This document shows, piece by piece, positions 9,867-40,306 of a DNA stretch of 64,000 nt; the stretch's first letter is position 1; every line of letters starts with the position of its first letter. Made by a program: the position numbers and the translations under genes. This stretch comes from an uncultured Planctomycetota bacterium (GTDB lineage Bacteria; Planctomycetota; Planctomycetia; Pirellulales; Lacipirellulaceae): NCBI GenBank assembly GCA_963719315.1, contig CAVRBU010000004.1, positions 288,001 to 352,000 of the forward strand, in the 5' to 3' direction. The notes below the pieces were generated by a model. The model worked only from the letters and a program-made list of their open reading frames with translations, searched no databases and was not told the DNA's origin.

Positions 9867-9887
9867 GGTATCGCTCCTCTTCGCGGA

Positions 9888-13153: not shown

Positions 13154-13174
13154 TCGTATTTCAGTACTATGCGG

Positions 13175-13243
13175 AGGAACGCTAATCCTCACTAATCTCC
13201 GCTAATCCGGAATTAGTGGAGATTAGTGAGGATTAGTGTTCCT
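13175..13243. repeat. Palindrome built from tandem 10-mers (CTAATC / GATTAG)
   Basis: AGGAACGCTAATCCTCACTAATCTCCGCTAAT pairs with ATTAGTGGAGATTAGTGAGGATTAGTGTTCCT between coxB and coxA. Confidence 0.8.
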
Positions 13244-13301
13244 GAATTTTGCTTCGTAACTTGCACTACTGTAATTCGCAATTCTGTTAGAGCGATTCGT
13301 C

Positions 13302-14975: not shown

Positions 14976-14981
14976 CGCGCT

Positions 14982-16888: not shown

Positions 16889-16899
16889 ACATAACGGAA

Positions 16900-18224: not shown

Positions 18225-18232
18225 ATAACGGA

Positions 18233-18997: not shown

Positions 18998-19029
18998 ATA
19001 GTGCTCCAAAGAAGCAACGAGAATAAATT

Positions 19030-19595: not shown

Positions 19596-19612
19596 CGGCA
19601 GCAGGATTCCTC

Positions 19613-23413: not shown

Positions 23414-23458
23414 AGCCCGCTCACTTCAAGACAACGTGATAGGCAGTAGAGGTAGAGA

Positions 23459-24135
23459 ATGTCTCACGCAAAGGCGCAAAGGCGCAAAGAATATCTTGGT
23501 GAACTTTGCGCCTTTGCGGCTTTGCGCGAAGTCTTCTTGAGTGTTTACAGCGCGCGACGCAATTGTCATTCTAGATTCGTTGCTCGAAGAATTGCAGCGA
23601 TCGTTTCGATACTCGTATTGTTCAGTGGCGCCGGTTGCGGGATTGCGTTCGCCGACGGCGGGAAATTGCGTGTGATGCAACATCATGGGGACCAGCAAGT
23701 GACGGTCTTCACTTCGCCCAATCCATTGCGCGCCGGTCCGATCGACGTAAGCGTACTGGTGCAAGACGCGAAAACCGGCCAGGCCGTCACCGACGCCGCC
23801 GTGATCGTCGAGCTCGCGCGGCCCGATGATTCCATCCCGCCCATCCGCACCGCCGCCACAACGGCCACCGCCACCAATAAACTTCTGTATGCCGCGCAAT
23901 TGGAACTCCCCTCCCCGGGCTTTTGGGACGTTTGTGTCCAGTGCAGCATCCCGCCGCAGACGAGGACAGAAGACACCTCACTGAGGTCCGATTTACGATG
24001 GAAGCCTCACCGCCGCTACCGCGCTGGCTCTTCGTTTGGCCGTGGTTTGCTTGGCCAATCGTCGCGGTGCTGCTGTTCGCGCTGCACCGAAAACTCGTCG
24101 CCCGAAGTACATCCGACGCCACGAGCTCCGGCTAA
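23459..24135 (+). CDS. Exported YtkA/FixH-like protein with C-terminal TM anchor (start uncertain; frameshift at about 23970)
   Basis: Signal peptide ending AFA-DGG, VTVFTSPNPLRAGPIDVSVLVQD, YAAQLELPSPGFW. TM tail WPWFAWPIVAVLLFALHR lies in the other frame. Confidence 0.55.
23462..23529. repeat. Palindrome of tandem CGCAAAGG / CTTTGCG units
   Basis: CACGCAAAGGCGCAAAGGCGCAAAG ... CTTTGCGCCTTTGCGGCTTTGCGCG. Confidence 0.75.
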
Positions 24136-24364
24136 GTTTGCCATGTGATCGCGCAAAATCGAGCTTGGTCCGTGCCGATCTGATACAGGCCGAGTACCGA
24201 GGCGCGCAAAGCCGGCAAGCCGGGTGTGACGGTGGCAGCGGCATGGCGCGGTTCTCCCAAGGTGGGAGCACAAAACGGAATCTTCCGTTTTCGCCTCTGA
24301 GAAACACCGCATCGCAGAACGCTCAGCCGGTAGGAATTGCGCTTGTTTCGGTGGGAATCTTACG

Positions 24365-24408
24365 AATGGAGCCGAAGGGACTCGAACCCTCGACATCTAG
24401 CTTGCAAA
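24365..24408 (-). repeat. Perfect 44-bp copy of tRNA-Ala 3' half (att between islands A and B)
   Basis: AATGGAGCC...CATCTAGCTTGCAAA is identical to 40078-40121 and ends in the anticodon loop. Confidence 0.95.
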
Positions 24409-24697
24409 TTTGGTCATGCACAGCCGTATACTAAGAGTTTTATTCGGCAATTCCTGTATCAAACGCTGATTGTACCAGCTTGCAATTCCATTGCAAAGCG
24501 TTGCAATTTATTCCGATGAATTGCGGTAGTTCAAGAGATGGGCTGCGCAAAGCGGTAGTTTACCGTTTTGGCTTTTCCAGAATTCACGCCGCACAGCCCC
24601 ACAGCCTTCCGATCCGATCCAGCGGAAGATAACTCACCCGCTGCCGTCGGAGCGTGTTACGTGACGACGTGGTCGGCCTCAGAGTATCATCGGCGCC

Positions 24698-24886
24698 ATG
24701 GCCCAAGATCGACGCCAAGAATTGATCCAACTGCTGGCCGACATCGACCAGCAGATCACCGAAGCCCAGCGGGTCATGGTTGACTGCCCAGAGGACAAGA
24801 TCATTCTCGCGGCGTCCGCCCAACTGATTGAGCTACGGGCCGCCCTAGAGCGGGTTGAGACACTATTTAGCGAAAGTCGGGATTAG
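24698..24886 (+). CDS. Small helical hypothetical protein (paralog family 1)
   Basis: 62 aa amphipathic helices; TATCAT lies 7 nt before the ATG; similar to ORFs at 25789 and 29369. Confidence 0.6.
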   Translation: MAQDRRQELIQLLADIDQQITEAQRVMVDCPEDKIILAASAQLIELRAALERVETLFSESRD

Positions 24887-25055
24887 CAGTCGCACAGGAT
24901 GCCCCAGGAATTGCGCCGACAGTTCATTGCGACATTGGGTAGGCCTGACCTACTGCGGCCTTTATTCTCCCCTGGTGGATATCTGGCATTAGGTGACAAT
25001 GTGGCTAACAGCCGCTTCGGCTACGTTGGATCATTCATCGAAAGGATTCGTTTCA

Positions 25056-25361
25056 ATGTCCATAGCATCCGCCGAGACGAACGCAGTCAGAGATTTGCAG
25101 CAGTTCGTTAACGACATTTGCGCATCGAATGGCGGCACAGTCTCGCACTCCGATACCGACTTTATAGCACGCATACCCGCCAGCATCGTGAGCCGTGCCG
25201 ATGTGCACAACACATTCCTGCAACTGCATCCCGAGCATGAGAAGTTCCGTAAACGGCTTTCGAGCGTGGGCATGAGCAATCCCCACCTTTGCGACGAGCT
25301 GTGGCAGGCGGCGCAAGCCCGAGCTCACAAAAACCATCCTGCCGCTCGCCCCATCCGTTAA
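25056..25361 (+). CDS. Hypothetical protein (paralog family 2)
   Basis: AAGGA RBS; shares VSRAD...F..LHPEH..FR with the ORF at 26557. Confidence 0.7.
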   Translation: MSIASAETNAVRDLQQFVNDICASNGGTVSHSDTDFIARIPASIVSRADVHNTFLQLHPEHEKFRKRLSSVGMSNPHLCDELWQAAQARAHKNHPAARPIR

Positions 25362-25493
25362 TCGCTGTAATTAAGGCAGCATCGACGTTAAGCTCTCCCT
25401 TTGCCGTAAATTGGTCCCTCTGGGTTGGCGGAGATGAGCGTCAAAGGACCGATAGTTGATACGTGGGAGTGGCGGAATGCTATACTGGTTTCC

Positions 25494-25688
25494 ATGTCAA
25501 TTAACTTGCGTTGCTCATTCTGTAACGAATCCGAACAACAAACCGGGCCCCTGCTGGCGAAGATGGATGCCAGCGTAAAGCGCAGCCCTATTCGCATCTG
25601 CAAAGGCTGTGCTAAATTGGCGATCGATGTCATCGATCGGGAAGTCCTGCGACGTGCTGGCGAACGCCCGCGACTCCGTGTGATATAA
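25494..25688 (+). CDS. Stand-alone ClpX C4-type zinc finger protein
   Basis: LRCSFCNES...PLL...IRICKGCAKLAIDVI matches the ClpX N-terminal zinc-binding domain pattern. Confidence 0.7.
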   Translation: MSINLRCSFCNESEQQTGPLLAKMDASVKRSPIRICKGCAKLAIDVIDREVLRRAGERPRLRVI

Positions 25689-25788
25689 CTTTCAGTCCCA
25701 CAATCGCGTCGAACGAGCGCCGATGGGTTGGACCGATGGTTGTTGTGTCCGGTTTTGGCCGCGTCAGCCGCCCCGCTATACTGGCGCC

Positions 25789-25965
25789 ATGGCCTTAGAC
25801 CGACTCAATCGCTTGGTCGCATTACCGGCCGAACTTGAGCAGACGGAGACCCAGGCTGAACACTTGGAAGTTGAAGGGATCGATACAGACATCAATGATC
25901 AATAGCGAGAATTGGTAGCTGCCGCTCGCGTCAAGATCGAAGGGGAGCTGCAATCCCAACAATGA
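25789..25965 (+). pseudogene. Paralog family 1 member with in-frame TAG at 25903-25905
   Basis: Read-through gives MALDRLNRLVALPAELEQTETQAE...DT...Q*RELVAAARVKIEGEL, which aligns with the 29369 ORF. Confidence 0.55.
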
Positions 25966-25989
25966 AACATGTGAACTGTGACTCGCAAG

Positions 25990-26223
25990 TCATTTGCTTT
26001 CACCTTTCTCTACAAGCTTTGCCACTAGGTCGTCGCGATTGTCGGCGTCATACGCATACTGCCGCCCGTCGGCGCTCACGATCACCCGCACACCGGGATG
26101 TTCGCCCTCAACTTCTGCAATGCCGGGTATGCTGAAATCTTCTTTTGATTCCACTCGAATGTTCACCGCGTTTGGATGACATACCTTTGCGGCAATTCGG
26201 ATGTCGTGTTTTGATGCGGGCAT
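25990..26223 (-). CDS. Hypothetical protein
   Basis: 77 aa with a strong AAGGAG RBS and protein-like composition. Confidence 0.55.
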   Translation of the reverse strand: MPASKHDIRIAAKVCHPNAVNIRVESKEDFSIPGIAEVEGEHPGVRVIVSADGRQYAYDADNRDDLVAKLVEKGESK

Positions 26224-26556
26224 TTTTATTCTCCTTGTGAGATGGGCTGCGGAACTACATCCTCAAGCCTATCGTAGTCGAACTCCGCCATTTCGTATTT
26301 AATCGTGAGAAATCCCAAATAAAACCCGGCTGCTGCCCCAACGGCGTCCTGTTCGTCAAGTTGAGTTAATGCTCGCTGATGCGTGGGGCCGCACATTCCG
26401 GGGTGACGCCCACTACTTCCCGAAAATCGGTACTTCAGGATGCCCCAGGAAATGCGCCGAAGGGTCGGGTCGATGGTTGATACCTGCCCTCTGGCGGTTT
26501 TTTGGCGTCGTGGTATCGTTGAGTGCGGGGCCGTACTATCGAACGGAGGCATTGCA

Positions 26557-26850
26557 ATGTCGGAAATGATTGATCGTCAGCGAGCCATTCACGATTACAT
26601 GGCTTTTGTATCTGATCATCGCGCCTCGAAGGCCCGCCACGTTCCTCCCACTGCCGAAGATTTGCCGCCAGTCGAGTCAATTGAAGTGAGTCGCGCGGAC
26701 GCTATGAAAGCCTTTTTTGAGTTACACCCAGAGCACGGTATTTTCCGCCTCGACGTTTCACACGTGTTTGAAGATCAACAGTTGTTTTCGTTCTCAAAAG
26801 AACGCTGGGAGAAAACAACGCGCAAACTTGCCAAGGCCAAGCCCAAGTAG
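26557..26850 (+). CDS. Hypothetical protein (paralog family 2)
   Basis: GGAGG RBS; homologous to the 25056 ORF. Confidence 0.7.
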   Translation: MSEMIDRQRAIHDYMAFVSDHRASKARHVPPTAEDLPPVESIEVSRADAMKAFFELHPEHGIFRLDVSHVFEDQQLFSFSKERWEKTTRKLAKAKPK

Positions 26851-26993
26851 AGTGCCATGCTAATTGAATTGTTGGCGCCGCCAAGGCGGGCCCCACGGCC
26901 AAATGCCTCAGGCCGCCCACGCTACATGATGGCGTGGGCTCTTGCTGTGGGCGTTCGTCAAGCAAATGATCCGACCGGAAGTCCGGCCATCAT

Positions 26994-27041
26994 GCCCGCC
27001 GGCTCGCGACTTCCGACGGGCTAATCGAATTGTAAAGGACC
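26994..27041 (-). repeat. Repeat A copy 1 (boxA-like sequence plus hairpin)
   Basis: GCCCGCCGGCTCGCGACTTCCGACGGGC...AATTGTAAAGGAC; other copies at 29276-29324 and 33945-33992. Confidence 0.85.
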
Positions 27042-27320
27042 ATTCTGCCGCGTTTCCTTCGCGGCCGCAGGGGTTGCGCCGACGGGTCGGGTCGATGGTT
27101 GATGCGCTGGGTTTTCCAGGCGCGCCAAAAACGGTAGTTTACCGCGTGTCTTTGATTCTCATCGCGGCCAATTGTTCCGGGCAATCCTCTAGGCCATTGG
27201 ATTTAGTATCTGTCTACTGCAATACTTTTCAATTATTCTGGAGGTTCCCGGGAGGGCTGTGCGGCTTATCTTTCGTTCGACGGGATTTTGACCGTTGCCA
27301 ACTTTCGACAATTCGAAAAT

Positions 27321-27980
27321 ATGGCGAAGACCAAAGCCGAGTTAGAGCTCGACGATCAGCGGCATCAAAAGTTGATGACCGACGCCCGCGCTGCACTGCA
27401 GCGAGAGTCTTATTTTGACGCAGTTCAAATGGCCGTCTCTGCGCTGCAGCACGTTGACGGAATGATGCAATATGACCGACGGTGGGGTAGCAAGTCTGAG
27501 TTCGAAACAATTGACAGCGTCGCGCTCGTGCTTCGCTATGCACCACTGATATTCGATAGTGACAGCTTGGATCAACTCGCGTCGCTGCTCAAGTCCCAGC
27601 GCCGCATCGACAAGAACTCCGCCGTGGATATCGCGTCAGATCTGGAGGCTTCTGTTTCCACGATGTGGGATGCACATCGTTTGTGGTCCCATTTGGAATG
27701 CGAACACGAGGTTCGCCAGGATGAACTTCGTCGTAAATTCGGCGGTGACCAGGACAAGTGGAGGTGGATTGCAGAAACTTGGGAGCGTATGGGTCTACTT
27801 TGCCGTGTACCAGAAGGCGGTTCATATCGGCTTTCCCTAGTTTCCCGACTAGAAACGCGTGTTCGTGGTAAATGTGCATCATGCGGTGTTACGGGCCAGG
27901 CTGACAAATTTCACTTGTTCCAAGAGATTCAGTGCCCGAAATGTAAAGCTTCCGGCTTTTGGGTGATCATGTTGAGTTGA
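27321..27980 (+). CDS. Hypothetical protein: helical N-terminus, possible winged helix, C-terminal Zn ribbon
   Basis: CASC...CPKC; ends 1 bp before the DUF4041 gene. Confidence 0.75.
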   Translation: MAKTKAELELDDQRHQKLMTDARAALQRESYFDAVQMAVSALQHVDGMMQYDRRWGSKSEFETIDSVALVLRYAPLIFDSDSLDQLASLLKSQRRIDKNSAVDIASDLEASVSTMWDAHRLWSHLECEHEVRQDELRRKFGGDQDKWRWIAETWERMGLLCRVPEGGSYRLSLVSRLETRVRGKCASCGVTGQADKFHLFQEIQCPKCKASGFWVIMLS

Positions 27981-27981
27981 A

Positions 27982-29265
27982 TTGACGCTCTTCGAAAGGT
28001 TTGTTGCAGTGTCTTATTTCATCGTGCTAATTGCTGGCATGGCCGGAGGGGCGCTATGTATGTTTTTCGCGCTTCAAAGAAAGCGCGATGCGATTGAAGT
28101 GTTGCGTCGGCGTCAAACGCAAGAAGCAGAACACCTAAAGAGCACTGCGTCACTTCTGGCGGATCGCGAGGCCCAATTTGGCAAAGAAGTCGATCAATTT
28201 CGCACCGCACAGAACGAGTTTCAGGAAGGCGTTATTTCCTACAAGAACTTGACTGACGAGAATCTAATTCTCAAACGAGACCTAAAGAACTTCGCCGTAT
28301 CTCTCCGCAAGACGAAACTCGATCAACTGACACAACAAAAAGCCCAGGAGACGCTAAATAGTCGGGTTCAAGTTCTAGGCAAGCGATACTTAAAGGACAG
28401 TGTAAAGTGGATTGGTGCATCGCTAAATGTAAATAATTTCGTGGCGTGCAAACAGCGCCTACAAAATAACATCGAACAGTTGCGCGGCGTCGGCTTTGAG
28501 GTAACAGCTAGTGAAGAGGCAGGCTACATCGTTGATTTACGCACCGAATATGAACTCCTGGTGCGGGCAGCATTCGAACGGGAGGAGCAGGCCAGAATCA
28601 AATCTCAAATTCGAGAGGAACAAAAGCTCGAACGGGAACTCCAGCTCGAACGGGAACGGATTGATCGCGAGAAAAAGTTAATTGAAGCAGCATTGGCCAA
28701 AGCAATGGCCGAAGCGAAAGATCAATACAGTGCAGAAGTCGAAAGCTTGAAGGCCAAATTGGCAGAGGCAGAGGCCAATCAGCGTGCTATCTCTCAAGCA
28801 CAAATAACAAAGGCTGGCTATATCTATGTTATCTCGAATATTGGATCATTTGGCGAAGGCGTCTTCAAGGTTGGCATGACGCGACGTTTCGAGCCGATAG
28901 AACGCGTACATGAATTAAGTGATGCGTCCGTTCCATTTCCTTTCGATATTCACATGATGATTTCGTGCGATAACGCGCCGGCACTTGAAAATGCCTTACA
29001 CAAAGCGCTCGTGAAGCAACAGGTCAACAAGATGAATCCTCGGAAGGAGTTTTTCAAGACGGACATTCACACAATTGCTGAACTCGTAAAAGAGCACCAT
29101 GGCGAAGTGCACTATGTGGTGGATGCGGAAGCGCCTCAATACAGGCAGAGCATTGCGATGTCCGACGAGGACATGAAGTTCATTGGGCAAGTTTTCGACG
29201 AGGCGGAAGAGGACAGTCCAGCCTTTGACGGGGAAGCATCGCACGAAATCGCATCATCCTATTGA
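27982..29265 (+). CDS. Membrane-anchored DUF4041 + T5orf172/GIY-YIG nuclease-domain protein
   Basis: N-terminal TM helix, coiled coil, EEQARIKSQIREE, RAISQAQITKAGYIYVISNIGSFGEGVFKVGMTRR, LSDASVPFPFDIH, VNKMNPRKEFF. Confidence 0.9.
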   Translation: MTLFERFVAVSYFIVLIAGMAGGALCMFFALQRKRDAIEVLRRRQTQEAEHLKSTASLLADREAQFGKEVDQFRTAQNEFQEGVISYKNLTDENLILKRDLKNFAVSLRKTKLDQLTQQKAQETLNSRVQVLGKRYLKDSVKWIGASLNVNNFVACKQRLQNNIEQLRGVGFEVTASEEAGYIVDLRTEYELLVRAAFEREEQARIKSQIREEQKLERELQLERERIDREKKLIEAALAKAMAEAKDQYSAEVESLKAKLAEAEANQRAISQAQITKAGYIYVISNIGSFGEGVFKVGMTRRFEPIERVHELSDASVPFPFDIHMMISCDNAPALENALHKALVKQQVNKMNPRKEFFKTDIHTIAELVKEHHGEVHYVVDAEAPQYRQSIAMSDEDMKFIGQVFDEAEEDSPAFDGEASHEIASSY

Positions 29266-29275
29266 GGGCCAGTAC

Positions 29276-29324
29276 GCCCGCCGGCTCGCGACTTCCGACG
29301 GGCCATTTCGAGTTGTAAAAGAAC
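29276..29324 (-). repeat. Repeat A copy 2
   Basis: Same 28-bp hairpin as copy 1, followed by TTGTAAAAGAAC. Confidence 0.85.
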
Positions 29325-29368
29325 GTGGCCGGCGCTTCCAACCGCTCCATCCTCGCTATACTGCGACC

Positions 29369-29560
29369 ATGCACCCCGACTACCGCAAAGCGCTGGTCGC
29401 TCACCTTGCCCGCCTCGACCGCATGGAAAGCGAGGCCGATGACATTCTGAGCGGCCCTGCTGATACATCGCTCGTGGCCCAAGCAGAAGAACTCCGCGAA
29501 CTCATCGTCGAGATGCGAGCGAGCGTTGAGGAGAAGCTGGACCGGATTACGGAGGCGTAG
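29369..29560 (+). CDS. Small helical hypothetical protein (paralog family 1)
   Basis: 63 aa; TATACT lies 6 nt before the ATG; stop codon directly precedes SRAP. Confidence 0.65.
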   Translation: MHPDYRKALVAHLARLDRMESEADDILSGPADTSLVAQAEELRELIVEMRASVEEKLDRITEA

Positions 29561-29562
29561 CA

Positions 29563-30219
29563 ATGTGCGGACGATTCACCTTGCGCCTCCGCTGTCGGTG
29601 CTAATCAAGCAGTTCGCGATCGAGTTGACGGCCGACCAGCAACGGCTGCCATTCGAGCCGCGCTACAACATCCCGCCGACCGTCGATATTCCGGCCATCA
29701 GATTAACGGATGGCGCACGACGGATCGCATTCATGCGTTGGGGCCTGCTGCCATCGTGGACGAAAGACATCAAGCGAGCGCCCCTGCTGAATAACGCTCG
29801 CGCTGAAACAGCCGTCGAAAAGCCTTCGTTTCGGTCTGCGTTCAAGTCCCGCCGTTGCCTCATTCCGTCCGATGGTTTCTTCGAGTGGAAGCGCAGAAGG
29901 TAAGGCTAAGCAGCCCTACGATTTTCGGCGGCCGGATGAGCGGCCGTTTGCATTCGCCGGTCTCTGGGAACAGTGGAATAAGATTGAATCTTGTACGATC
30001 ATTACGACGGAAGCCAATGAAGTGATGTCGCCAATTCACGACCGGATGCCGGTTATACTTAGCCGAAACGACTACGCCGTGTGGCTCGACCCAGCGGCGA
30101 CAGAACTGGGGAAGCTGCTGACGCCATACCCGGCGGACGAATTGATATGCTATCCAGTGAACCCCGTGGTCAACAACGCTCGCAACCAAGGAGCGCAGTG
30201 CATCGAGCCGGTTCAATGA
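29563..30219 (+). CDS. SOS response-associated peptidase (SRAP/HMCES/YedK family); two frameshifts at about 29585 and 29895
   Basis: MCGRFTL start, PRYNIPPT, RWGLLPSW, NARAET, RRCLIPSDGFFEW, FAGLWE, IHDRMPVIL. Confidence 0.88.
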
Positions 30220-30672
30220 GATTCCGCAAGCTGCGAATCGCGTGGTCGGTGGCGTGGGGCATACTCGCCGTGTTGCTCTGTGTGTTGTGGGTGCGGAGTT
30301 ACAAAATAGCCGACATCGTGTCGGGGCATATCACGACTTTCAAAACCTTCAGTATAACGTCGGACAAAGGGCGGTTTCTCGCATGGCTTAACACGGCTGC
30401 CCCTATCCTTCGTCCTCCTGCTCATTGGCACATGACTTACGTTCCTGGTGTTGTGAGCTGGAAACTTTGGACGTATGGCAAGTTGCCTGTTCCTTATGCC
30501 GGTTGGTACATCCATGCACCTCAAGGGCTGTTCATATTGTTGGCAGCCGCGACTCGCCATAACTCCGTGGATATCGTGGCCTAACCGCTTCAGCCTCCGA
30601 ACTTTGCTAATCGCCATGACGCTAATCGCGGTGGTGATGGGGGCGGCTGCTATGATGTTGAGGGGAAGCTGA
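30216..30672 (+). CDS. Planctomycete membrane protein (MRFRKLRIAWS...RFSLRTLL type); frameshift at about 30550
   Basis: N-terminal TM ...CVLWVRSY; C-terminal PW...RFSLRTLLIAMTLIAVVMG in a second frame. Confidence 0.65.
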
Positions 30673-30708
30673 GGGAGGCGCGATAGGATGGTGGCAACTG
30701 ATAGCTCC

Positions 30709-31179
30709 ATGACTGACACAACTCGCGCTCGCTGGTTTTCGTTTAGGCTGCGTACGCTGCTGGCAGTAATGACCGGCTGCGCCTTCGTTGCTTTTGTTGC
30801 GCAATGGATACTTTCACAAGCGGGCGGCGTGCGAACTGCCATCCTGGTCATACCGTGGGCGATTGGATCATTCGCCGGAATATATCTGGCTGTCAGATCC
30901 AACCGCAGCACACTACTTTGGGCGATGGGAGGCGGTGTACTAGGTTGCCTGCTTTGCCCCGGAACTCTCGTGGTATTCCTTTACCTCAATGACATGAATG
31001 GAGTTAGGAGCTTGTCCACTTTGTGGACGCAACTGGCGATTGCTGTCTGCGGTAGCTGGTTGCTGGCCGCTTTTATCGGCACTACGCGAGAAGGACTATT
31101 TTTTTGGCGAAAGTGCAGGCTAGTCGATCGTGATTCACGGCACATCCCACACACTAACTTACCACCGCCCACGTACTGA
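30709..31179 (+). CDS. Membrane protein with planctomycete FSFRLRTLL N-terminal motif
   Basis: RWFSFRLRTLLAVMT plus about four hydrophobic helices. Confidence 0.65.
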   Translation: MTDTTRARWFSFRLRTLLAVMTGCAFVAFVAQWILSQAGGVRTAILVIPWAIGSFAGIYLAVRSNRSTLLWAMGGGVLGCLLCPGTLVVFLYLNDMNGVRSLSTLWTQLAIAVCGSWLLAAFIGTTREGLFFWRKCRLVDRDSRHIPHTNLPPPTY

Positions 31180-31302
31180 ATCGGAACCGATCGCGAGCAA
31201 CCAACTTGCTTTTTGAAGGTTGGCTTTAGTAAGCTGGGCTTATACAGGCATTTCCCAACTAATAACTAGTTCGTCGCCTCCAACGCATCAGGAACCACCG
31301 CA

Positions 31303-31773
31303 ATGGCAAGCTCGTTTTGGAAACTCTCAATGGCCGGCGACGATTTCAAAAGCATTCTCGAGGTGCTGGACTGGATTCGACGCGGAGTTGTCCTCGTCCA
31401 CAAGGACACGCGTGCCAAAGGGACGTCCCAAACTTCCCAAGGCCAATACTTCACTGAGCTGGAACGCCTTGGTGATTACTTTTACCTTTGTCACGGCAAC
31501 CATGAACCCGCAGTTCTCTTCCTGGGCCAATTTACAGGGCCACCAAATCTCTTCTGTGAACGCGGGCACGGTTGGGCGGAACGATCGTTTCGATGGATTC
31601 GCACTTCGATCTCAACCAAAAACTACAACGGCCAAGCGAAATGGTGGGCTCCGAATCACAACAGCACATTTACGAAAATCCCCGAATCAGATCTCGATGA
31701 ATTTGAATCGGGTATATTGGCACCGTATTTCGACATGCACCTTGCCGACTTTAGGATCGACTATGAGTCGTAG
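31303..31773 (+). CDS. Hypothetical protein, possibly EVE/PUA-like (resembles N-terminal domains of McrB-type GTPases)
   Basis: FWKLS start, GDYFYLCHG, LGQF, WWAPN.NSTF, ILAPYF. The family link is from memory only. Confidence 0.55.
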   Translation: MASSFWKLSMAGDDFKSILEVLDWIRRGVVLVHKDTRAKGTSQTSQGQYFTELERLGDYFYLCHGNHEPAVLFLGQFTGPPNLFCERGHGWAERSFRWIRTSISTKNYNGQAKWWAPNHNSTFTKIPESDLDEFESGILAPYFDMHLADFRIDYES

Positions 31774-32159
31774 TACTATGATGGATGGCGAATCAAACGG
31801 CCGATGAACTAAACGGTGAGCCCCGGACAGCGCCGGCCGATGACGACGGTGGAGCTGACGCTAAAAGTCCAACGGCGCGGATGCCGTCCGCTCGACCGCG
31901 CTGAGGACGTGGAGCATGCCATACGGAGTGTGCTTCAATATCATCGGCGGCCGTTTCGGAAGGATGATAAGGGGCGGTGGGAAGTGGCAGAAAACTCAAC
32001 GAAAGCCAATTAAACCTCCCTTACCCCGTTAGGGGCGCGCCTTTTTTCGAATTCTGCCACATTATCTATTGCGATTAGCCTGCCCCGACGCCAAATATGG
32101 GAGTATCTGCTCTCATTTGAAAGGCACATATACAATTGTATGTGCTGGCGGGGGTTTGC

Positions 32160-32947
32160 ATGGCGGCACAGCCGAAGTACCTTTTCACAGCGATTGTTGA
32201 TCCTGATCCGCTCGGATTGAGCCAGGCTCACAAGCCGTGGGTAAAGGGTTATATTGCGGCTCGCCATAAATGGGACCGCTCGCTGGAGAGTCCATATTGC
32301 ATTGCCAACGAAGCGATTTGTGCAGAGCTGGGGCGGTACATCGGTCTTCCGATACCGCCTTACGCGATAACACGAACATTTAACAACGAGTTCAGCGACC
32401 GCGATTTGGTGTCGTTCCTTGATTTTAATTGGGGCAGGCGCAATCCGAGTCCAGTCGAACCCGACTACTGTTTGCAATCACTTCCACAAATTTGTGCAGG
32501 CATCGTGGTTTTTGATGTTCTAATTGCTAACCCGGATCGTCACGACGAAAACCTCGCCGTGGATCGAACGGATACGCCAAAGGACATGCGAGTATACGAC
32601 CACGATGTCGCGTTATTCGGAAACGTAGCAGGCAAGGGAATTCAAAGACTGAATGAGATGCAATCGCGACTCGGAATAACTGGCAGCACAATGACCGGCG
32701 GCAATCGCCACGTATTTTTGGACTCAATCACCACGAACGAACATTTTGAACCTGGGTTATTCGAATTGAAGAGATACCACACGGTTTTATTGAGCGGCTA
32801 TGTAATAGAGCAAAAGAATTCGGCATTACCCAAGAAGAAGCGGATCGTGCGCACACGTTCCTCTACAGGCGAAAGCTTGATCTTCGGGGAATTCTAAACA
32901 GACACAAGGCAGACTTTCCTGGAATTACGAATTGGCCATCGATATGA
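32160..32947 (+). CDS. HipA-like kinase; frameshift at about 32752
   Basis: ANEAICAELGRYIGLPIP, FDVLIANPDRHDENL, YDHD. The corrected frame ends ...NWPSI* with an ATGA overlap. Confidence 0.8.
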
Positions 32948-33741
32948 GCCACCCACCACGATTTTTGATCGTCAAATACGTTCCCGACTGGAACGAATGG
33001 AGCCTCGCAACATTGGAGTAATCTTGTGGAGCGAAGGCTACGTTGCTGCGCGGTTTTTCGGTGAAGGGGAAGATGGTTCGAGGCTACGCCCCCCGCCGTT
33101 TATTGAGAGGAGAAATCGCGTTGTGTATGGTGATTGGGTAAGGTACTGGCATCGTAATTTGGCAAAACCAAAACTAAACGGTATTGTCCGTGAGAGCGTG
33201 CAATTTGTCGATGCTGTTTGCTCAAAGTCTCGCGATAACTACATCGTTGTTAAGGGTGGACAACTCTTAACGACTCTTACCCCCGATGAATGCCGCGAGG
33301 CTGTAGATGAATTATTTGATCGGTTTGTGGGCGATGCGCCCTTCTGTAAAGCTTCGGCAAGCCTGCGACCTGGCTATTAACAACGCCTTAACAAAAGAAC
33401 AGTACGCCAAAAACTTTCTGTTTGAATGTCGCGTAGCTGGTAAAGTAACACACACATTTAAGTTTAATTACGCCGGCGTACAGCTAGGCAACCTGCCTCG
33501 CGCACTTTTTCAGCGGGTTGATCTAGATCAAGACGGGAGCGTGAATAGCGCAACGCTTATGTTTGAATCGGCAACAAAAAAAAACATTAGCAAAGATCAA
33601 TGCGGGGCTCTCATTGTTGATGGCACCTCAAACCACCAAAGCGCCTGGGATATGCTAGGCTCGTTTGCAACGTTTGTGGACGTGTCCAATCTGAATGAAG
33701 CGCGATATACGATTCGCCAAATGTCTGGACTTAACGGCTAA
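32944..33741 (+). CDS. DUF3037 domain protein; frameshifts at about 32995 and 33345
   Basis: FLIVKYVPD..MEPRNIGVIL N-terminal motif; translationally coupled to the kinase; C-terminal HTFKFNY. Confidence 0.7.
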
Positions 33742-33817
33742 CCAGGTGATAGCACCAATGTCTTGGCCGGAATGAAAAAAGCTCGCCTATCTCTGAAGTT
33801 CGCACGCTCTTCCTCTT

Positions 33818-33912
33818 GGAGAGCGGCTCGCGCCTTGGGGGCGTATCAGCCTTATACTCTACGATAGGTACCGCGCCCGCGGTTGGGTTCGATTCCCCCT
33901 CTCTCTCTGCTA
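33818..33912 (+). ncRNA. tRNA-like gene with 9/3 fold (allo-tRNA-like), probable anticodon UAU, partly degenerate
   Basis: Acceptor GGAGAGCGG/CCTCTCTCT, D-stem GCGCC/GGCGT, loop CTTATAC, long variable arm ACCGC/GCGGT, T-arm GGG-TTCGATT-CCC, 3' end GCTA. Confidence 0.65.
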
Positions 33913-33944
33913 AGCACGACCTTGCGCTGCAGCGGACCTCGGCC

Positions 33945-33992
33945 GCCGCCGGCTCGCAACTTCCGACGGGCTAATTCAAATTGTCAATGAAC
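33945..33992 (-). repeat. Repeat A copy 3
   Basis: GCCGCCGGCTCGCAACTTCCGACGGGCTAATTCAAATTGTCAATGAAC. Confidence 0.85.
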
Positions 33993-34011
33993 ACCGGCCG
34001 CGTTGGCTGTC

Positions 34012-34218
34012 CTCGCTCAGTTGGGACGACGTTCGCGGCCTTTGGCTCGCGTTCGTTTGGTACTGCTCGTAACGAACCTCTGTTCCATCAGCCGGTCGGA
34101 AAACTCTAGTCCGCCATCCAACTGTGTGCAGTGCGCGAATACGTCATCGCCACCGACTTCAGGACGGATGAAAAAATAGCCTTTATCGAGTCGCAAACTA
34201 ACTACGTGCGTTTCGCAT
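34012..34218 (-). pseudogene. Cold-shock domain protein, frameshifted (absent from the ORF track)
   Basis: Minus strand reads VVSLRLDKGYFFIRPEVGGDDVFAHCTQL...KAANVVP, i.e. RNP1 KGY.FI and RNP2 DVF.H. Confidence 0.65.
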
Positions 34219-35309
34219 GACGTTTTCCGTTGGGCTAATGCACGATCGCGATCGATGCATAGCTAACTCCATCGCTAACAGCATCGGGCAATCTTCCAGT
34301 TTCGCCGCAATCCGCAAGTCGTCGGGCACGTGCTTGTATTTGCGCTAGGGTGAAATGCTCGCGGCCAGTGAAATCTTATCGCTGACACGATGGCTAACAG
34401 ACGGCGACGCTTCTTCGCTGAAAACTAACTCTCTTGCGCAATGCGTCAAATAGTTGTGTGCGAGTTTTTCTATCGCGTCATGTAAATCTGGATCAACGTT
34501 TCATTGGTTTGCGCATGGCTTCTGCTGATCGCTCGAATTGATCTACGCTGCGCGCGAATCGACGCTAACTTCGTGGATCATGTAGCGGCTGCTGATGCTT
34601 ATCGTTACGCTGTTGCACGACGCACGCGATTAAGGTTCGAACTCGCGCTAAGCTATCGACGAAAGCATCTGTCTGGCGTGCGGGACATAATGACTTCGTG
34701 CATTGCTAAGGCTGTAAAAACGTCGCTACTATCTGAGCGAATGCGGAGTTCGATGTCAGCATGCTGGGGATCGAAAGCATCTCTTGGAGGATTTTCGTGA
34801 TTCGTCGGTGCTTTCGAGCGTACAACTAGACGACGGGCGCTCGCGCGCGGTTTGTGATGAGAGTCTTTGGACGTGCGCTGTCGTCCAGCAGATTAACGTA
34901 GTGGCTTCCTCGCGCAGTTGCTCGGCTCAGCGGTGCTGACGCTGATCCTGCTCAATCTCCATGAGTGTCAGCTCGCACGATTCCATTCGCGTAAGGCCAC
35001 ACGGGCTTGGCTCGTCAGCTATTTCCGGCCGGCGATGGCGGTCACTTCCATCCGCTCAAGCAACTCGGAGATTGGTGATGTTTGATTTCATGCTACTTGC
35101 TCTCTTTGTTGATGTTGTGTTAGTGTTTGATTGTTGGGAGTGATATAAGATACGTGTTTAGTTTATGCGTGTTTATTTGATGTGTATGTAGTTTTTTAAT
35201 GCTTGTATGTTTCGCTGTATGTGCGTAGTTTATATGTTAATTGATAGAAGATAGCGTTTGGTGTTAATGTTTGTTATGGTTTAGTTTTCTCACTGTAGTA
35301 TCGCTCTGG

Positions 35310-35525
35310 TTATATTACATTTCTAATTTTTGGTATCTCTACGTTAACTTTGAACGGCTCACGGCACGATCGGCAGATTGCAAGCCGGGTTCGCGAGCCG
35401 TCGCCGTTCGCCACGCTGCGAACAGTTGTATGTTCCGGGCTTCCGCAATGGGCGCACGTCACCGCATCGACCGTCACGATCGGGGCCGCTGTCCAGTCAA
35501 TGCGATGTGAGGCCGGGCCATTCAT
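35310..35525 (-). CDS. Ogr/Delta-like zinc finger protein
   Basis: CAHCGS...TVRS...RLAICRSCREPF; overlaps the TerS stop. Confidence 0.6.
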   Translation of the reverse strand: MNGPASHRIDWTAAPIVTVDAVTCAHCGSPEHTTVRSVANGDGSRTRLAICRSCREPFKVNVEIPKIRNVI

Positions 35526-35998
35526 CGAAGCAAGTCCTCTAGTTCGCGGTCACTATCCGCGAAAAGATTACGCCGCCGAACGCCGCTCGTTGTCGATGTC
35601 TGCGGGTCGATGCGAAGGCTAGAGCGTGATGTCGGCGTCAAACCGAACTTCTGGCCGATGGTTGTAATTTGCTCGATGCACTTGGATTCGATCATCAAGG
35701 CCGGATGTCGCCGGCCATCGAGAATGAGGCCGTCACGGCCGAGTATCTCGCGGGCCTCCGCTAGCCGCTGGTGAGCGTGGCAGTAGCACGCCAACGCCGA
35801 ACTATCCAAGGGACACAACAATCCCTCGATGTCGCTCAACTCGCCAACAACTTCGTCCCAAACTTTGGCCGCGATGGGGGCCAACCATTCAGGCTTGCGG
35901 GGTTCGCCGGCACAGGTGGCCAGCGGAATTCCGTCTTGCGTTTCGTCGTAACTTCCATCCATCAGTTTTGCTCCGATTGGTGCTCTGTTCCGTCCCAT
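35522..35998 (-). CDS. Phage terminase small subunit, P27 family
   Basis: PEWLAPIAAKVW, LDSSALACYC, HPAL, FGLTPTSRSSL; GGAGG RBS. Confidence 0.88.
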   Translation of the reverse strand: MGRNRAPIGAKLMDGSYDETQDGIPLATCAGEPRKPEWLAPIAAKVWDEVVGELSDIEGLLCPLDSSALACYCHAHQRLAEAREILGRDGLILDGRRHPALMIESKCIEQITTIGQKFGLTPTSRSSLRIDPQTSTTSGVRRRNLFADSDRELEDLLR

Positions 35999-36028
35999 TG
36001 ATCCTCCAAGTAAAAGCTATTTTTCGGA

Positions 36029-36450
36029 TTAAAATACGACACACTGTCGTGATGGTTTCCGTGATCGCGAGACCCGGAAAAATCCTTCCCCCGGTGGGGT
36101 GTTACTGCTAGCCGCTGATTCCCTTGCGGTTTTTCTCGAATGGCAGGACCAGCACAGTGCGCGGAGATTCGCCCAGCAATACAGCAACTCCTCATTGCCT
36201 TCGTGCGGTGTTACGTGATCCACGCACTCAGCCGCTTTAGTAATGCCGTGCTCGACACACTCCTCGCACAATGGGTGCGCTGCTAGGTAGGGCTTCTGGT
36301 AGTGGTCGTCCATCTGCGGGTATATCCACGCTGGCTACGCGATGGGCGGGTGTCTGGTGTCCGTTGCTTGGCGTGGATCGCACAACGGCTGGAACCGTCT
36401 GTCAGTCTCAGGCAGCCGGGCGACGAGCATATTGACTTGGCTCTGTTCAT
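36029..36450 (-). CDS. Phage HNH endonuclease (HK97 gp74-like); frameshift at about 36300
   Basis: N-terminal CSSPGC...RCAIH, RGY...W, HPLCEEC, VDHVTPHEG, NLRALCWSCHSRKT. Confidence 0.85.
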
Positions 36451-36574
36451 TGCGTCACCATCCCACGTCCGTCACGTTGCGGTACGCTTCGAGCTCGCGG
36501 TTGAACCAGTAAAGAGCCAGCGCAGGATAGTCACGGGTGCTGTCGCCTTGCGGCGCTTGTGCTGTCCGCCGAGG

Positions 36575-37590
36575 TCACGCACCGAGGGCCTTGAGCTTCT
36601 CGGCGCATTGGCGTTTGCGTTCCTCGATGTCGATGGTCGATAGGTCGCTGCAATCCGGTTCTTCTGCATTGGTTTTCTCCTCATGTTCAAAAAAAACGTC
36701 CACAGCGGACACCGCGACAAGCGGTTCCGCTGTTCCTTTAAGAGTTCCATTAAGAGTTCCTTTAAGAGTTCCCTTAAGTAGATGGCTCATTTCTGCACCC
36801 CCCCTGGTCCATTTCTGCCCCCCGTGGCTCATTTTTGCGCGGGTCGTGGCTCACTTTTAGGCCACGGTGAAGGGTTACCAAAGGGTTAGCTAACTGTTCG
36901 CAGTGGCTCATTTCTGCGCTTCGGTGGATTAGCTCGTTTGGCACCTGGAAGTCGGGGTTGAGATACAGCGTGTCGGCCATCGTTCGGCAGCGCCCGTAGT
37001 CGTCGCGATACCACGCGGCCGGGTCCACCAAGAGCAGCCCACGATCCACGAGTTTCGCCTTGGCAATCGAGATCGAACGCTTGGATAATCCGCTATCCTT
37101 GGCTAGCGTCGCCACTGGATATTGCAGCCGGTTGTAAACGTCATCGCCTTCCGCGGAGCCATTGGTGATCGCATCATTCAATGAGTCCCTGGACACGACG
37201 AGGGCGAAGACAGCACGCTCGGCCCAACTCGGCAACATCTGGGCCGCCCATCGTGGAAGGATCGCAAACTTAGCGCCGTGGTTTGCGCTCAGATACCCCT
37301 GCGACACGTAGTACGTTGCTGTGCGCCGCCGCTGCCGCCCTTTGTGTTTCAAGAGTACGGCCTTGAGGAGCTGTTCAACGTGCCGCTTAACGGTCGGACG
37401 GGGCACGCACGCCTTAGCAGCTATCACTGCCAGGCTAGCAAACGTCTCGCCGCTGTGCTTGGCGAGTGCACGGTACGCCGCGAAGGTCTGTGCTGCTGGT
37501 CCGACCATCTGCATCACTTCCCGTGGAAGTCCTCAGCGCGTCATAGCGCTTAACTTCCGACAACGGCGTTGTTGTGGTATCCTGACTCAC
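36575..37590 (-). CDS. Winged-helix replication initiator-like protein (frameshifts at about 37530 and 36830)
   Basis: Two HTH segments (FASLAVIAAKACVPRPTVKRHVEQL; YPVATLAKDSGLSKRSISIAKAKL). Iterons lie inside the 3' half. Confidence 0.65.
36732..36917. promoter_or_regulatory. Putative replication origin: five iterons plus four tandem AT-rich 12-mers
   Basis: TGGCTCATTTCTGC-like units at 36783, 36805, 36825, 36847 and 36904; GTTCCHTTAAGW x4 at 36732-36779. Confidence 0.7.
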
Positions 37591-37647
37591 TGAACTTCCA
37601 TGTAGCCCGGCGGTTCGATTGGCGTTGGGCCGCCGGGCATTTAATTC

Positions 37648-37926
37648 TTACACGCCCAGTTCCGCGGCGCGCTTTTCTGCGCACTCGATTGACCTTTGAC
37701 GTTGGCGGGGAGTTTCGCCGTTCACGATCGGCACGCCGTTGATCGCTGCGACCCATCGCTCGTATGCGGGCGACGTCGTGAACTTCTTGCCGCCGATGCT
37801 GAAGGATTCGAGCACGTGCCCCTTGCAGCCTCGCAAGGACCAACGCCAAACGGTTGAGAGATGGACGCCTTCACGGCGAGCCAGAGCGGAGAATGAGATG
37901 CGGGGCTCAGATAGAATCGAACTCAT
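37648..37926 (-). CDS. DUF1580 HTH protein (excisionase/AlpA-like)
   Basis: VHLSTVWRWSLRGCKG..LES..IGG...TT, C-terminal AAELGV. Confidence 0.8.
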   Translation of the reverse strand: MSSILSEPRISFSALARREGVHLSTVWRWSLRGCKGHVLESFSIGGKKFTTSPAYERWVAAINGVPIVNGETPRQRQRSIECAEKRAAELGV

Positions 37927-38044
37927 AGCAATCCTCGCAATGAAAGTAAGTGACTACTTCCATTGTCGAGTAACTGCTATTGAACGCGATTCAATTCAGC
38001 GTCTCACGCGGACAGATGTACTTATTTCCGTGGAAGAATGTACT

Positions 38045-38617
38045 TCATTCCGCAATGCCACGTTTTCGCAACTCCTCACTAATTGTTTTGCTACTGACTA
38101 CTGCTCCGCCGCGGTGCCGAACGACATCTTCCGTGACACACTTCAACCAATCCTTTTTGCCGGTGTGCTTTGCATACGCTACTTGCAAAATAAGGTCGGG
38201 GACACCACTCAATTTTGTCTTTCCCTCCTTAGTAAGACGCCTTTGTGTGTGATATCGCGACAGCTCACGATGCGCTTTGTGCGCGCCCATTCCCCACTGC
38301 CAAATCCGCTCTACTTCGTGGAGATGAGCGTCAAAGGTAAAAGCCATCCGAATTACCTTAGCCATATCTCCGGCTTTGCGAGCGGCTTCTAACTGATAAA
38401 GACATTGAAGCGCAATAACTGTATGGGTTGTTTCATACGATGTCTGACCCATGAGATACGATCGCTTGCCCTTGAATTCGAGCATCTCATCGGTTTTCTT
38501 TTTCGTCACATAGGGTGCAATCTTTTCCTCCAGAATCTCACGCCACATACGAATATGTTGTTCATCTGAAACAGCCGCCGGGTCATTCGCCCGAATATCC
38601 ACACATCTGTAGTCCAT
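38045..38617 (-). CDS. Hypothetical protein
   Basis: 190 aa with AAGGA RBS, between integrase and xis; possible C-terminal HTH. Confidence 0.65.
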   Translation of the reverse strand: MDYRCVDIRANDPAAVSDEQHIRMWREILEEKIAPYVTKKKTDEMLEFKGKRSYLMGQTSYETTHTVIALQCLYQLEAARKAGDMAKVIRMAFTFDAHLHEVERIWQWGMGAHKAHRELSRYHTQRRLTKEGKTKLSGVPDLILQVAYAKHTGKKDWLKCVTEDVVRHRGGAVVSSKTISEELRKRGIAE

Positions 38618-38730
38618 GGCATCATCCTTTCAGCCGGGCCGATCGGCCGGCGCCGTGGCGATGATGTTTCCACAGCGGCCGGCCAATCGTGTGCGGTAAA
38701 TTACTCCGCGACCCGAACAATAAATAAATT

Positions 38731-39960
38731 CTATCCGATCATCTTCGCTACTTCGATTGCTCGTTGCCGGTCCTGCTCGGCATAAATGCCGGTGGTGTTT
38801 AGCTGCGAATGTCCAAGCAGCGTTTTCGCCGCCTCGATACCCGCTTCGCGGCGCACGCGCAGTCGCCATCGCGTGCCGCAACTGATTGGGCGACCAGCGG
38901 TGCTCACGCTCCCACTTGGCGACGGCTTCCGGATCGTCGGCAAGATCATCGGGAACCGGAAACGCCTTATCACTGGCGCGACGGACGGCAACCAGATAGC
39001 TTTGCGGGGTGTACCGCTCGCCTACTTGCCGCTTGGTACGGGGAACCTTGGAACCGGGCCGGTTGCCACAACTCAGCGGAGTCTTACGGGCCAGGTGCAA
39101 TTCGGCGCGCCGCTTGGCTTCGCTATCGGCTGGCGAAAAGCAGAACGCCTCACTGTCCCGCAAGAGATAGGGCCGCAAGATTTCCTGCGCCCTGGGGCCG
39201 ATGTAGACGATCCGCTCTTGCTCCCGATTCTGGTTTTTGTGTTGGGTCGGCTGGTACTGCCAAACGTCGGCGGTGCGGTCGATGTCCGCGGGCCGCATGA
39301 TACACAACTCGCCGGGGCGCATGCCCGTCATCTGCTGCAATTCCACCATCGACCGAACTATCGGCGGTAGGTAGGGCAGGGTGGCATCAACGAGCTTCGT
39401 ATCGGCCGGCTTGACCCGCTTGTTCTCTCGGGCCGCCGTATGTCCGCGGCGGAGACCGGGAACCATCGCCAATGCCTGCGGAACGTCGGGCGGGATCATC
39501 CCCTCACTCACGCCCCAACGGAACACGCGGCCGATCCGTTGGACGCTGGCGTTGATATGCTTTCGGGAGTGGCCCAGGGCGAGATACTTTTCCCGAATTG
39601 CTTTCAGGTGAAGGGGGCCGAACTCGCGGGCGGGGAGACGACCGTACAACTCGCGGAGCGGCCGGAGCGCGTGCCGCATGTTGGCACACTCGCCACGGTT
39701 GCCGGGGCCGTAGTACGCCTTGGCGTAATCCAGGTAGGCGACAACCAGTTCGACCACGGAGACGACGTGCTCAGGCACGCCGTAGGATGGACGACCGGCC
39801 CGACGCCAGCCATTCCGTGATCCGGCGGTCGTATTCGATCCGGCTAGCCTTGGTGCCATGAGGACCGAGGTAGTGATCGCGGCCGTTGACCGTGACGACG
39901 GCCTGCCCGGTGGCTTTGTGCTTTGCGATACTTGGGGACGGATTCTATAAGACGCGGCAT
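38731..39960 (-). CDS. Tyrosine recombinase/integrase (frameshifts at about 39922, 39795 and 38865)
   Basis: MPRL...YRKHKATGQAVV...YLGPHG N-terminus, TGMRPGEL, HKN, PNQLRH, LLGH...TGIYAE. Confidence 0.9.
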
Positions 39961-39983
39961 AGTGCGAACCTCCAAAAAATGCC

Positions 39984-40003
39984 AAAACGGTAATTACCGT
40001 TTT
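39984..40003. promoter_or_regulatory. Perfect 20-bp palindrome between att and integrase start
   Basis: AAAACGGTAATTACCGTTTT; related sites at 24553, 27126, 24272 and 6030. Confidence 0.7.
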
Positions 40004-40079
40004 GCGCTTCGAGGAAACGCCGCACTGCCGAACGTCGGCAGGTAACTTAAACTCTTGTTTCGGTGGTACTTACAACCAA

Positions 40080-40152
40080 TGGAGCCGAAGGGACTCGAAC
40101 CCTCGACATCTAGCTTGCAAAGCTAGCGCTCTCCCAACTGAGCTACGGCCCC
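40080..40152 (-). tRNA. tRNA-Ala(TGC)
   Basis: GGGGCCGTAGCTCAGTTGGGAGAGCGCTAGCTT-TGC-AAGCTAGATGTCGAGGGTTCGAGTCCCTTCGGCTCCA; G3:U70. Confidence 0.97.
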
Positions 40153-40159
40153 GCAGGGA

Positions 40160-40224
40160 GCCGTCAGCCGCCAGATTTCGGCCTTCAGCAAAAAACTGAC
40201 GGCTGACGGCTAACGGCTGACGGC
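40160..40224. repeat. Tandem heptamer (CTGACGG) palindrome between the tRNAs
   Basis: GCCGTCAGCCGCCAG ... CTGACGGCTGACGGCTAACGGCTGACGGC. Confidence 0.7.
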
Positions 40225-40232
40225 TTTTTCAG

Positions 40233-40306
40233 TGGGCGCGCCAAGACTCGAACTTGGGACCTCGGCCTTATCAGGGCCGCGCTCTAACCAACTGAGCTAC
40301 GCGCCC
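40233..40306 (-). tRNA. tRNA-Ile(GAT)
   Basis: GGGCGCGTAGCTCAGTTGGTTAGAGCGCGGCCCT-GAT-AAGGCCGAGGTCCCAAGTTCGAGTCTTGGCGCGCCCA. Confidence 0.97.

Follow-up and report, generated by a model that had tools for sequence, protein, structure and literature searches.

A C-depleted, T-enriched tract over the probable remnant of a small gene in a phage-satellite-like island, a candidate case of one-off deamination of a single strand

A short tract carrying T where ordinary DNA of the same genome carries C was found on the plus strand of a 64-kb window (C4:288001-352000), the whole stretch of DNA analysed here, which belongs to a 5.93-Mb genome in 20 contigs that is 90.7% complete. On balance, the tract is probably the remnant of a small gene, named orfX here, which would have been converted from C to T by a one-off deamination of the plus strand while that strand was single-stranded. 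The recount of the plus strand between 35101 and 35280 gave C 9, T 89, G 48 and A 34 (n = 180), exactly the figures of the first-pass annotation. The averages over the window are 29.6% C, 21.6% T, 28.6% G and 20.1% A. The fractions of C+T, of G and of A in the tract were equal to those of ordinary genome DNA, and the sole change was the swap of C for T. This is the footprint of C lost and T gained on one strand, with G and A unchanged.

Comparison with the rest of the genome was carried out at three scales. The C count of 180-nt intervals of the window had a mean of 53.3 (sd 7.6), and its minimum of 7 lay at the tract. When 150-nt intervals with 12 or fewer C or G were collected across the 5.93 Mb, six places (seven rows) were obtained, the tract included; the remaining five were tandem arrays, of heptamers or octamers, or a run of A. 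The ratio C/(C+T) in 200-nt intervals was 0.11 at the tract, compared with a genome mean of 0.587 (sd 0.067), and the next non-repetitive intervals showed values of at least 0.28. A genome search for similar tracts had been suggested in the first-pass annotation; no other non-repetitive one was found, the tract being the sole non-repetitive C- or G-depleted stretch of the genome.

The two edges of the tract are different: the change is abrupt at 35105 and graded toward 35336, and minus-strand G was found at normal density outside the core and the shoulder (Table 1). The Cs that survive between 35101 and 35280 are followed only by G (5) or T (4), as had been noted before. Among the seven survivors of the core, five stand before a G and five after one, a small set in a sequence whose converted sites are indistinguishable from native T. 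The Markov likelihood of the collapsed tract was typical of native DNA, in a test that cannot separate native DNA from shuffles. A second copy was not detected in the own genome, where C/T-collapsed BLAST stayed at or below a background of 63 bits. A C/T-collapsed IUPAC pattern with three mismatches allowed recovered only the tract itself among 401 genomes of the order, and no unconverted allele was recovered with collapsed IUPAC patterns from metagenome or viral contigs. Rfam and tRNA scans returned nothing in the tract, a promoter and terminator scan gave nothing above shuffles, and the GC skew of the contig was uninformative about the direction of replication.

The tract sits in an integrative, phage-satellite-like island of about 15.7 kb at a tRNA-Ala gene. 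The limits of the island, about 24409-40077, were set by the 44-nt att repeats found at both ends. An integrase at the tRNA, replication and small-terminase genes are present, with no full virion module. Leftward from the tRNA, the minus strand encodes the integrase, an unknown ORF, a DUF1580 helix-turn-helix protein and the HTH_36 protein, and further left on the same strand the HNH endonuclease, the Terminase_4 small terminase and a 71-aa Zn-ribbon protein. The direct repeats at 36732-36920 are likely iterons of the island origin. Like phage-inducible chromosomal islands and satellites, this element combines a tRNA integrase, a 44-nt att, a replication protein with repeats, an HNH gene and a small terminase, and has no capsid gene; this copy appears to have decayed to a remnant. 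On the left side of the tract, about 900 nt free of ORFs are accompanied by a degraded cold-shock-domain gene, by small repeated elements and, on the plus strand, by cargo genes.

Three statements of the first-pass annotation concern the genes beside the tract. The packaging-type genes that it placed beside the tract were confirmed as the small terminase and the HNH gene. The name "Ogr-like", given there to the 71-aa protein, was not upheld: its only Pfam match at threshold was Zn_ribbon_PaaD (27.4 bits for a cut-off of 27), and the matches with E ≤ 0.01 were Zn_ribbon_PaaD, Cys_rich_CPXG and Zn_ribbon_3 only, Ogr/Delta being absent. The bias had been said to begin inside the 3' end of this gene. 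It does begin within the reading frame, namely in an 8-codon tail absent in relatives, but the conserved part of the gene ends before the bias.

Table 1. Positions in the 64-kb window of the tract, the features around it and the island that carries it
Feature	Position	Strand	Remarks
Converted core, 184 nt	35105..35288	+	7 C on the plus strand (7 G on the minus strand)
Shoulder, partial depletion	35289..35336	+	8 minus-strand G in 48 nt
Palindrome remnant (damaged TTCCAAC..TTGGAA)	35321-35335		within the shoulder
Putative orfX remnant (pseudogene)	35093..35277	-	aligned to relatives with A<-G reversion
Zn-ribbon gene, 71 aa	35310..35525	-	last 8 codons enter former intergenic DNA
Small terminase subunit, Terminase_4 (E 3e-16), phrog_83	35522..35998	-	
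HNH endonuclease	36029..36313	-	domain scan
12-nt and 14-nt direct repeats	36732-36920	-	four copies of each unit
Replication-initiator-like HTH_36 protein	36774-37517	-	direct repeats at 3' end
Tyrosine integrase	38630..39985	-	beside tRNA-Ala
Att repeat over the 3' part of tRNA-Ala	40078..40121	.	identical to 24365-24408
tRNA-Ala	40080-40152	-	overlaps att repeat
Distal att repeat, 44 nt	24365..24408	.	100% identical
ORF-free stretch, ordinary composition	34197..35092	.	relative G021 has a ClpP-like protease gene at the equivalent place
Degraded cold-shock-domain gene	34017..34196	-	23.4 bits, below the cut-off of 27

Homologues of the Zn-ribbon gene were found in 8 of 23 genus-mates, the proteins sharing about 40% identity with that of the window. 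In six of the ten fetched loci, orfX, a conserved gene of about 70 aa that belongs to no Pfam family, follows at 3-71 nt past the Zn-ribbon gene. When the orfX protein of relative G012 was used as a database query, only five proteins were returned, all unnamed, three of which lie outside the profile described below. Relatives of the small terminase were found at one locus in genome contigs and at none in metagenome or viral contigs. In the window's genome, an orfX profile search of the sequence as read gave no match. In four of the ten loci (L029, L031, L033 and L034), the Zn-ribbon gene and orfX are separated by a conserved palindrome, TTCCAAC..TTGGAA, which may serve as an operator or in packaging; its damaged counterpart is seen in the shoulder. 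The island of relative G021 is collinear with the window: its Zn-ribbon gene and orfX are accompanied by genes for a ClpP-like protease and a cold-shock protein, and it shares a 47-nt repeat with the window. Unlike in satellites, orfX is followed by genes of a capsid module in relatives G021 and G016. Both have a ClpP-like protease, called in G016 from the ORF and its place only, and G016 also has a capsid-like ORF named from its sequence only. Downstream of the Zn-ribbon gene the composition was ordinary in all ten related loci, and a G-poor stretch was found there in none. Homologues sharing the G/T-rich sequence, which the first-pass annotation would have counted against conversion, are thus absent from these loci.

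The same loci bear on the possibility that the tract is a functional G-poor, A/C-rich RNA or DNA element, formed from a dead orfX by selection or by slow strand-biased mutation, for instance a packaging site or, at the 3' end of the operon, an unstructured region for Rho loading (rut-like). Its place at the end of the int-to-Zn-ribbon transcription unit, adjoining terS, would suit such a role. The minus-strand RNA is also nearly structure-free (-11.8 kcal/mol over 261 nt) and contains far more C than G, which is typical of rut sites. However, this fold energy is no different from that of shuffles (z 0.84), and the same was observed for either strand. A Rho-utilisation-like element would be without positional conservation, as 0 of 10 related loci have such a stretch and a coding gene is found there instead, and nothing similar follows other operons of the genome. 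The swap of C for T alone, with normal G and A, is furthermore unlike selection for AT-richness. A functional origin is therefore regarded as quite unlikely.

The relationship of the tract to orfX was evaluated by a reversion alignment, in which the minus-strand codons were aligned to orfX and each A was allowed as a former G. With a six-member orfX profile, the A<-G reversion scored 45.9 against 28.2 ± 4.6 in shuffles, and none of 200 shuffles reached that score; the tract as read scored 17.2, a value reached by 38 of 200. Dinucleotide shuffles with the same profile gave z 3.64 for A<-G (0/150) and z -0.97 for A<-T, and the scores of the remaining minus-strand rules and of twelve plus-strand controls were reached by 5-128 of 150 shuffles. 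The A<-C control also scored with this profile (z 3.29). Three metagenome relatives outside the profile were used as well, and with each of them the A<-G score was reached by 0 of 300 shuffles. For the same three relatives, the corresponding numbers out of 300 were 14, 3 and 3 for the sequence as read, 16, 13 and 4 for A<-C, 248, 216 and 37 for A<-T (not significant) and 16-93 for three further control rules; here A<-G was the only reversion that added signal over the score as read. Over 26 family proteins, the reversion z-score dropped with distance, from 4.05 in the closest subfamily to about 0 and below, as is predicted by true homology to that subfamily.

The reversion alignment runs in a single frame from 35277 to about 35100, and reversion raised the identities from 14 to 28 of 69 columns. 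In this alignment the former start reads ATA (35277-35275), three in-frame TAA codons are present, the end is a TAG (35095-35093), and an in-frame gap of 15 codons (45 nt) separates the remnant from its relatives. The same register (offset 35271) was selected by an ungapped DNA scan, in which the first 28 family codons were slid along the tract and the shuffles were also maximised over offsets; it was matched by 1 of 400 shuffles with plain identity and by 2 of 400 after A/G collapse. Three tests gave a different outcome. No signal was obtained with a 21-member profile from across the taxonomic family (157 of 1000 shuffles reached the score) or when the tract was added by MAFFT --add to a fixed alignment of six relatives (81 and 62 of 150), and the reversion alignment to the divergent 104-aa protein of G016 alone was not significant (39/150). 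Homology of the tract to orfX is supported at roughly p = 0.003 by the successful tests, which share data and are not independent of each other. It gains credibility because strand, position, spacing and palindrome remnant match the synteny of the relatives.

The lack of signal in the first two of these tests would also be expected from an unrelated AT-rich insert, foreign or junk DNA in which the resemblance to orfX arose by chance. The absence of any match in phage and plasmid collections points the same way, as does that of a period-3 signal in the tract, although the latter test is uninformative, since 6-12% of native intervals are equally low. However, one and the same register emerges at p ~0.003 or less from several tests with overlapping data, the relatives show the same position, strand and spacing behind the Zn-ribbon gene and the palindrome to which the remnant corresponds, and no flanking repeats marking an insertion were found around the tract. 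An insert of this kind is considered very improbable. Because of the orfX homology, it is unnecessary to invoke sequencing adapters or mitochondrial-type DNA as the source of a G/T-rich sequence.

The spectrum of changes was determined base by base in an unsupervised MAFFT alignment of the tract and three relatives, scored at the sites where all three relatives agree. None of the 24 conserved G was kept in the window's sequence, which has A at 19 of these sites, C at 3 and T at 2; the relatives' own retention of G was 26/30, 26/34 and 26/45. Conserved A was kept at 14 of 17 sites and conserved T at 13 of 18. At conserved C, 9 of 24 sites were kept, with 9 changes to A and 6 to T. When compared with re-aligned shuffles, the tract showed more T kept (15 vs 7.5 ± 2.1; 0/200), a higher identity (49 vs 37.9; 3/200) and more G-to-A changes (21 vs 14.0; 6/200), and C was kept at chance level (11 vs 10.7 ± 2.6; 110/200). 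The C-to-A, C-to-T and G-to-T differences are not plus-strand deamination. They are assumed to reflect the divergence of distant relatives, at about 40% identity in the neighbouring gene; the extra differences could come from third-position G/C swaps and from the use of other Ser, Gly or Cys codons, which become A-rich on collapse. The first-pass annotation had expected near-exclusive C-to-T differences in a collapsed alignment to homologues; with these distant relatives the picture is mixed, conserved G being mostly replaced by A and conserved C being lost to A and T as well.

The alignment was also considered in relation to a diversity-generating retroelement. A target of such an element was rejected, as no second copy was detected with C/T collapsed, the changes are at G/C and A is kept at 14 of 17 sites. 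The earlier observation that no reverse transcriptase is visible was reproduced among the 21 ORFs of the window that were scanned.

A sequencing or assembly artefact, namely a consensus of about 200 nt built from one or few damaged or chemically converted molecules and absent in the population, is judged unlikely. Trust in the assembly is affected by another of its sequences: at C2:1601270-1601380, a gene coding for calcium-binding-type repeats contains (TA)5 and then a run of about 100 A, an artefact-like insertion. However, ordinary sequence adjoins the tract on either side within one 840-kb contig, the tract coincides with one gene remnant, and no other such tract occurs in the 5.93 Mb. Read damage, moreover, does not produce a graded shoulder and an in-frame gap of 45 nt. 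Should the tract prove to be an artefact, it would be a useful warning on local conversion errors in assemblies.

According to the favoured reading, deamination of a single-stranded plus strand, nearly all plus-strand Cs would have become T over about 184 nt, together with a partly affected shoulder of 48 nt. The plus strand is the template strand of orfX, and on the sense strand the change reads as G-to-A, which would have inactivated the gene through loss of its start codon and gain of stop codons. Most probably, the plus strand became single-stranded in a single episode and was deaminated almost to saturation, either by a cytosine deaminase acting on single-stranded DNA or through prolonged exposure, the uracils being copied as T ahead of repair. 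The composition, the uniqueness in the genome, the homology to orfX and the specific loss of G are what the analysis shows; the deamination chemistry, the single event and the single-stranded intermediate are inferred from them. An exposure time falling toward higher coordinates would fit the abrupt edge at 35105 and the fading toward 35336. The intermediate could have been a gap whose filling along the template proceeded from 35336 toward 35105 or, alternatively, a cDNA-like plus strand begun at 35105. Two other routes were rejected or disfavoured. Exposure of the non-template strand during orfX transcription is excluded, since the converted strand is the template strand of the operon. Resection from a break near the terminase side would edit most densely beside the break, and the sharp edge at 35105 with fading toward 35336 argues against it.

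The first-pass annotation had put forward a deaminase-based activity against mobile elements as one possible cause, next to long-lived single-stranded DNA near the packaging site, and the profile searches of this genome (90.7% complete) did not support the former. The DddA-like, YwqJ, APOBEC_N, DYW, Toxin-deaminase and XOO_2897 families gave 0 matches each (PF14428, PF14431, PF08210, PF14432, PF14424 and PF14440). Three of these profiles, the DddA-like and DYW ones among them, had no match in any control genome either. MafB19-deam (PF14437) did match in this genome, as well as in 12 of 14 control genomes, and these matches look like housekeeping proteins. A DNA cytosine deaminase of the families searched was thus not found in the cell; the enzyme may have come from a competitor, another cell or a former host.

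Dense C-to-T editing confined to one strand characterises both the innate immune response of vertebrates to retroelements and the mutation clusters that deaminases produce in cancer. The term kataegis designates strand-coordinated clusters of APOBEC/AID mutations. The DNA deaminases of bacteria are familiar as toxins and also serve as tools. Like the products of APOBEC3G and kataegis, the tract shows one transition type on one strand, clustered and dense, and as with APOBEC3G, its sense-strand G-to-A change would destroy coding capacity via start and Trp-type codons. Unlike these products, it lies in an integrated island gene of a bacterium and is near saturation over only about 184 nt. It also differs from APOBEC systems in that the window's genome has 0 APOBEC_N matches and no clear context preference can be read from as few as seven survivors. 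APOBEC3G is described as causing G-to-A hypermutation of retroviral DNA (10.1101/2021.04.26.441389). That planctomycetes or competitors disable mobile DNA in an APOBEC3G-like manner, with an enzyme outside all families searched, is a decidedly doubtful proposal. A single-stranded copy of the island gene would then be deaminated to saturation and afterwards fixed in the chromosome, the copy being either a cDNA-like plus strand, with its priming site close to the 3' end of the orfX mRNA, or a gap template. The sense-strand G-to-A change and the sharp 3' edge fading toward the 5' end would fit this proposal.

Counterparts in bacteria were also compared. The toxins SsdA and DddA convert C to U in DNA and mutagenise surviving cells; DddA is a dsDNA deaminase toxin, and SsdA (BaDTF2) acts on ssDNA in all four contexts (PMC7901873; PMC12494967). 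Activity in all contexts, as described for SsdA, would make the near-complete conversion of one strand possible. In the available text of these sources, however, the C-G-to-T-A changes caused by the toxins are plotted along the whole E. coli chromosome and no local saturated tract is described. In addition, the window's genome gave no DddA-like or DYW family. The anti-phage dCTP deaminase defence resembles the proposed event in directing a deaminase against mobile DNA in bacteria. It operates by nucleotide depletion, and C-to-T editing of phage DNA was sought and none was found, according to the available text (10.1101/2021.04.26.441389), whereas the footprint of the tract would need editing of the DNA itself. 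As far as the text of the literature searched was available, no natural saturated one-strand deamination footprint in a prokaryotic genome was found. If the favoured reading is true, dense one-strand editing happens naturally in bacteria, on a mobile element, and such tracts can be detected simply by scanning base composition and then comparing the candidates with relatives in a three-letter alphabet.

The conversion had previously been extended leftward to about 34200, as GC-rich DNA in which several genes were destroyed. This description is supported for one gene, orfX, as aligned via A<-G reversion, but not for the leftward stretch: 34197-35092 lies outside the converted tract, given its ordinary C and G content and its lack of resemblance to the proteases of relatives, and no relative was detected with or without reversion. 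The comparison of 34197-35100 with the ClpP-like proteases of G021 and G016 was not significant, as read or reverted; one borderline alignment (4 of 120 shuffles) runs against the composition of the region. Searches of the left stretch by tblastx against all fetched loci gave nothing. The degraded cold-shock-domain gene has an intact relative in G021, with a score of 49.5 bits. The leftward enrichment in CTAA words was verified, as 9 occur in 34191-34730 compared with 0.55 expected, and TTAG does not occur. These words match a GCTAACA-type word that is tandemly arrayed elsewhere in the genome. Reassignment of a stop codon was rejected, since no long frame appears in 33700-35400 when TAG is translated as Q.

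Intergenic tandem arrays with units of 7-8 nt (CCCTTAA/CCCTCAA, CCACTACT and GCTAACA/GCTAAGA) were observed at C19:13720-14090, C4:604950-605060, C4:579590-579720, C11:148920-149025 and C4:827105-827205. In the array at C19:13720-14090, G is absent for more than 300 nt.

Further observations were made in the island and around it. A third copy of the tRNA-Ala att, 34 nt long, is present at 5840-5873 and suggests a second, older tandem island at 5874-24364, a stretch that also has cytochrome b/c and CtaG genes. The cargo on the plus strand includes a T5orf172-domain protein (27982-29265; phrog_1847, E 8e-82) and a HipA-like kinase-fold protein (32136-32897), which may be defence or addiction genes. 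The 47-nt repeat occurs in three copies in the island (26996-27042, 29278-29324 and 33946-33992). It was also found elsewhere in the genome, on other contigs, and in several relatives, among them G021 with its collinear island. The tRNA-Ala(TGC) forms a pair with a tRNA-Ile(GAT) at 40080-40306 on the minus strand, of the rRNA-spacer type, and no rRNA is found in the 64-kb window.

Finally, a tRNA-like element of about 90 nt with a long extra arm was detected at 33819-33907 on the plus strand. It matched tRNA-Sec weakly (19.5 bits, E 0.97, for a gathering score of 47) and was not called by ARAGORN. About 20 of the 29 DNA matches of a 2.7-kb query (17 of 61 genomes) fell on this element, with identities of 72-81% and several matches per genome. 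The copy in G012 was called by ARAGORN as a 90-nt tRNA-Ile with anticodon TAT (L008:1500-1589). The element at 33819-33907 may be an unusual long tRNA of the allo-tRNA kind.
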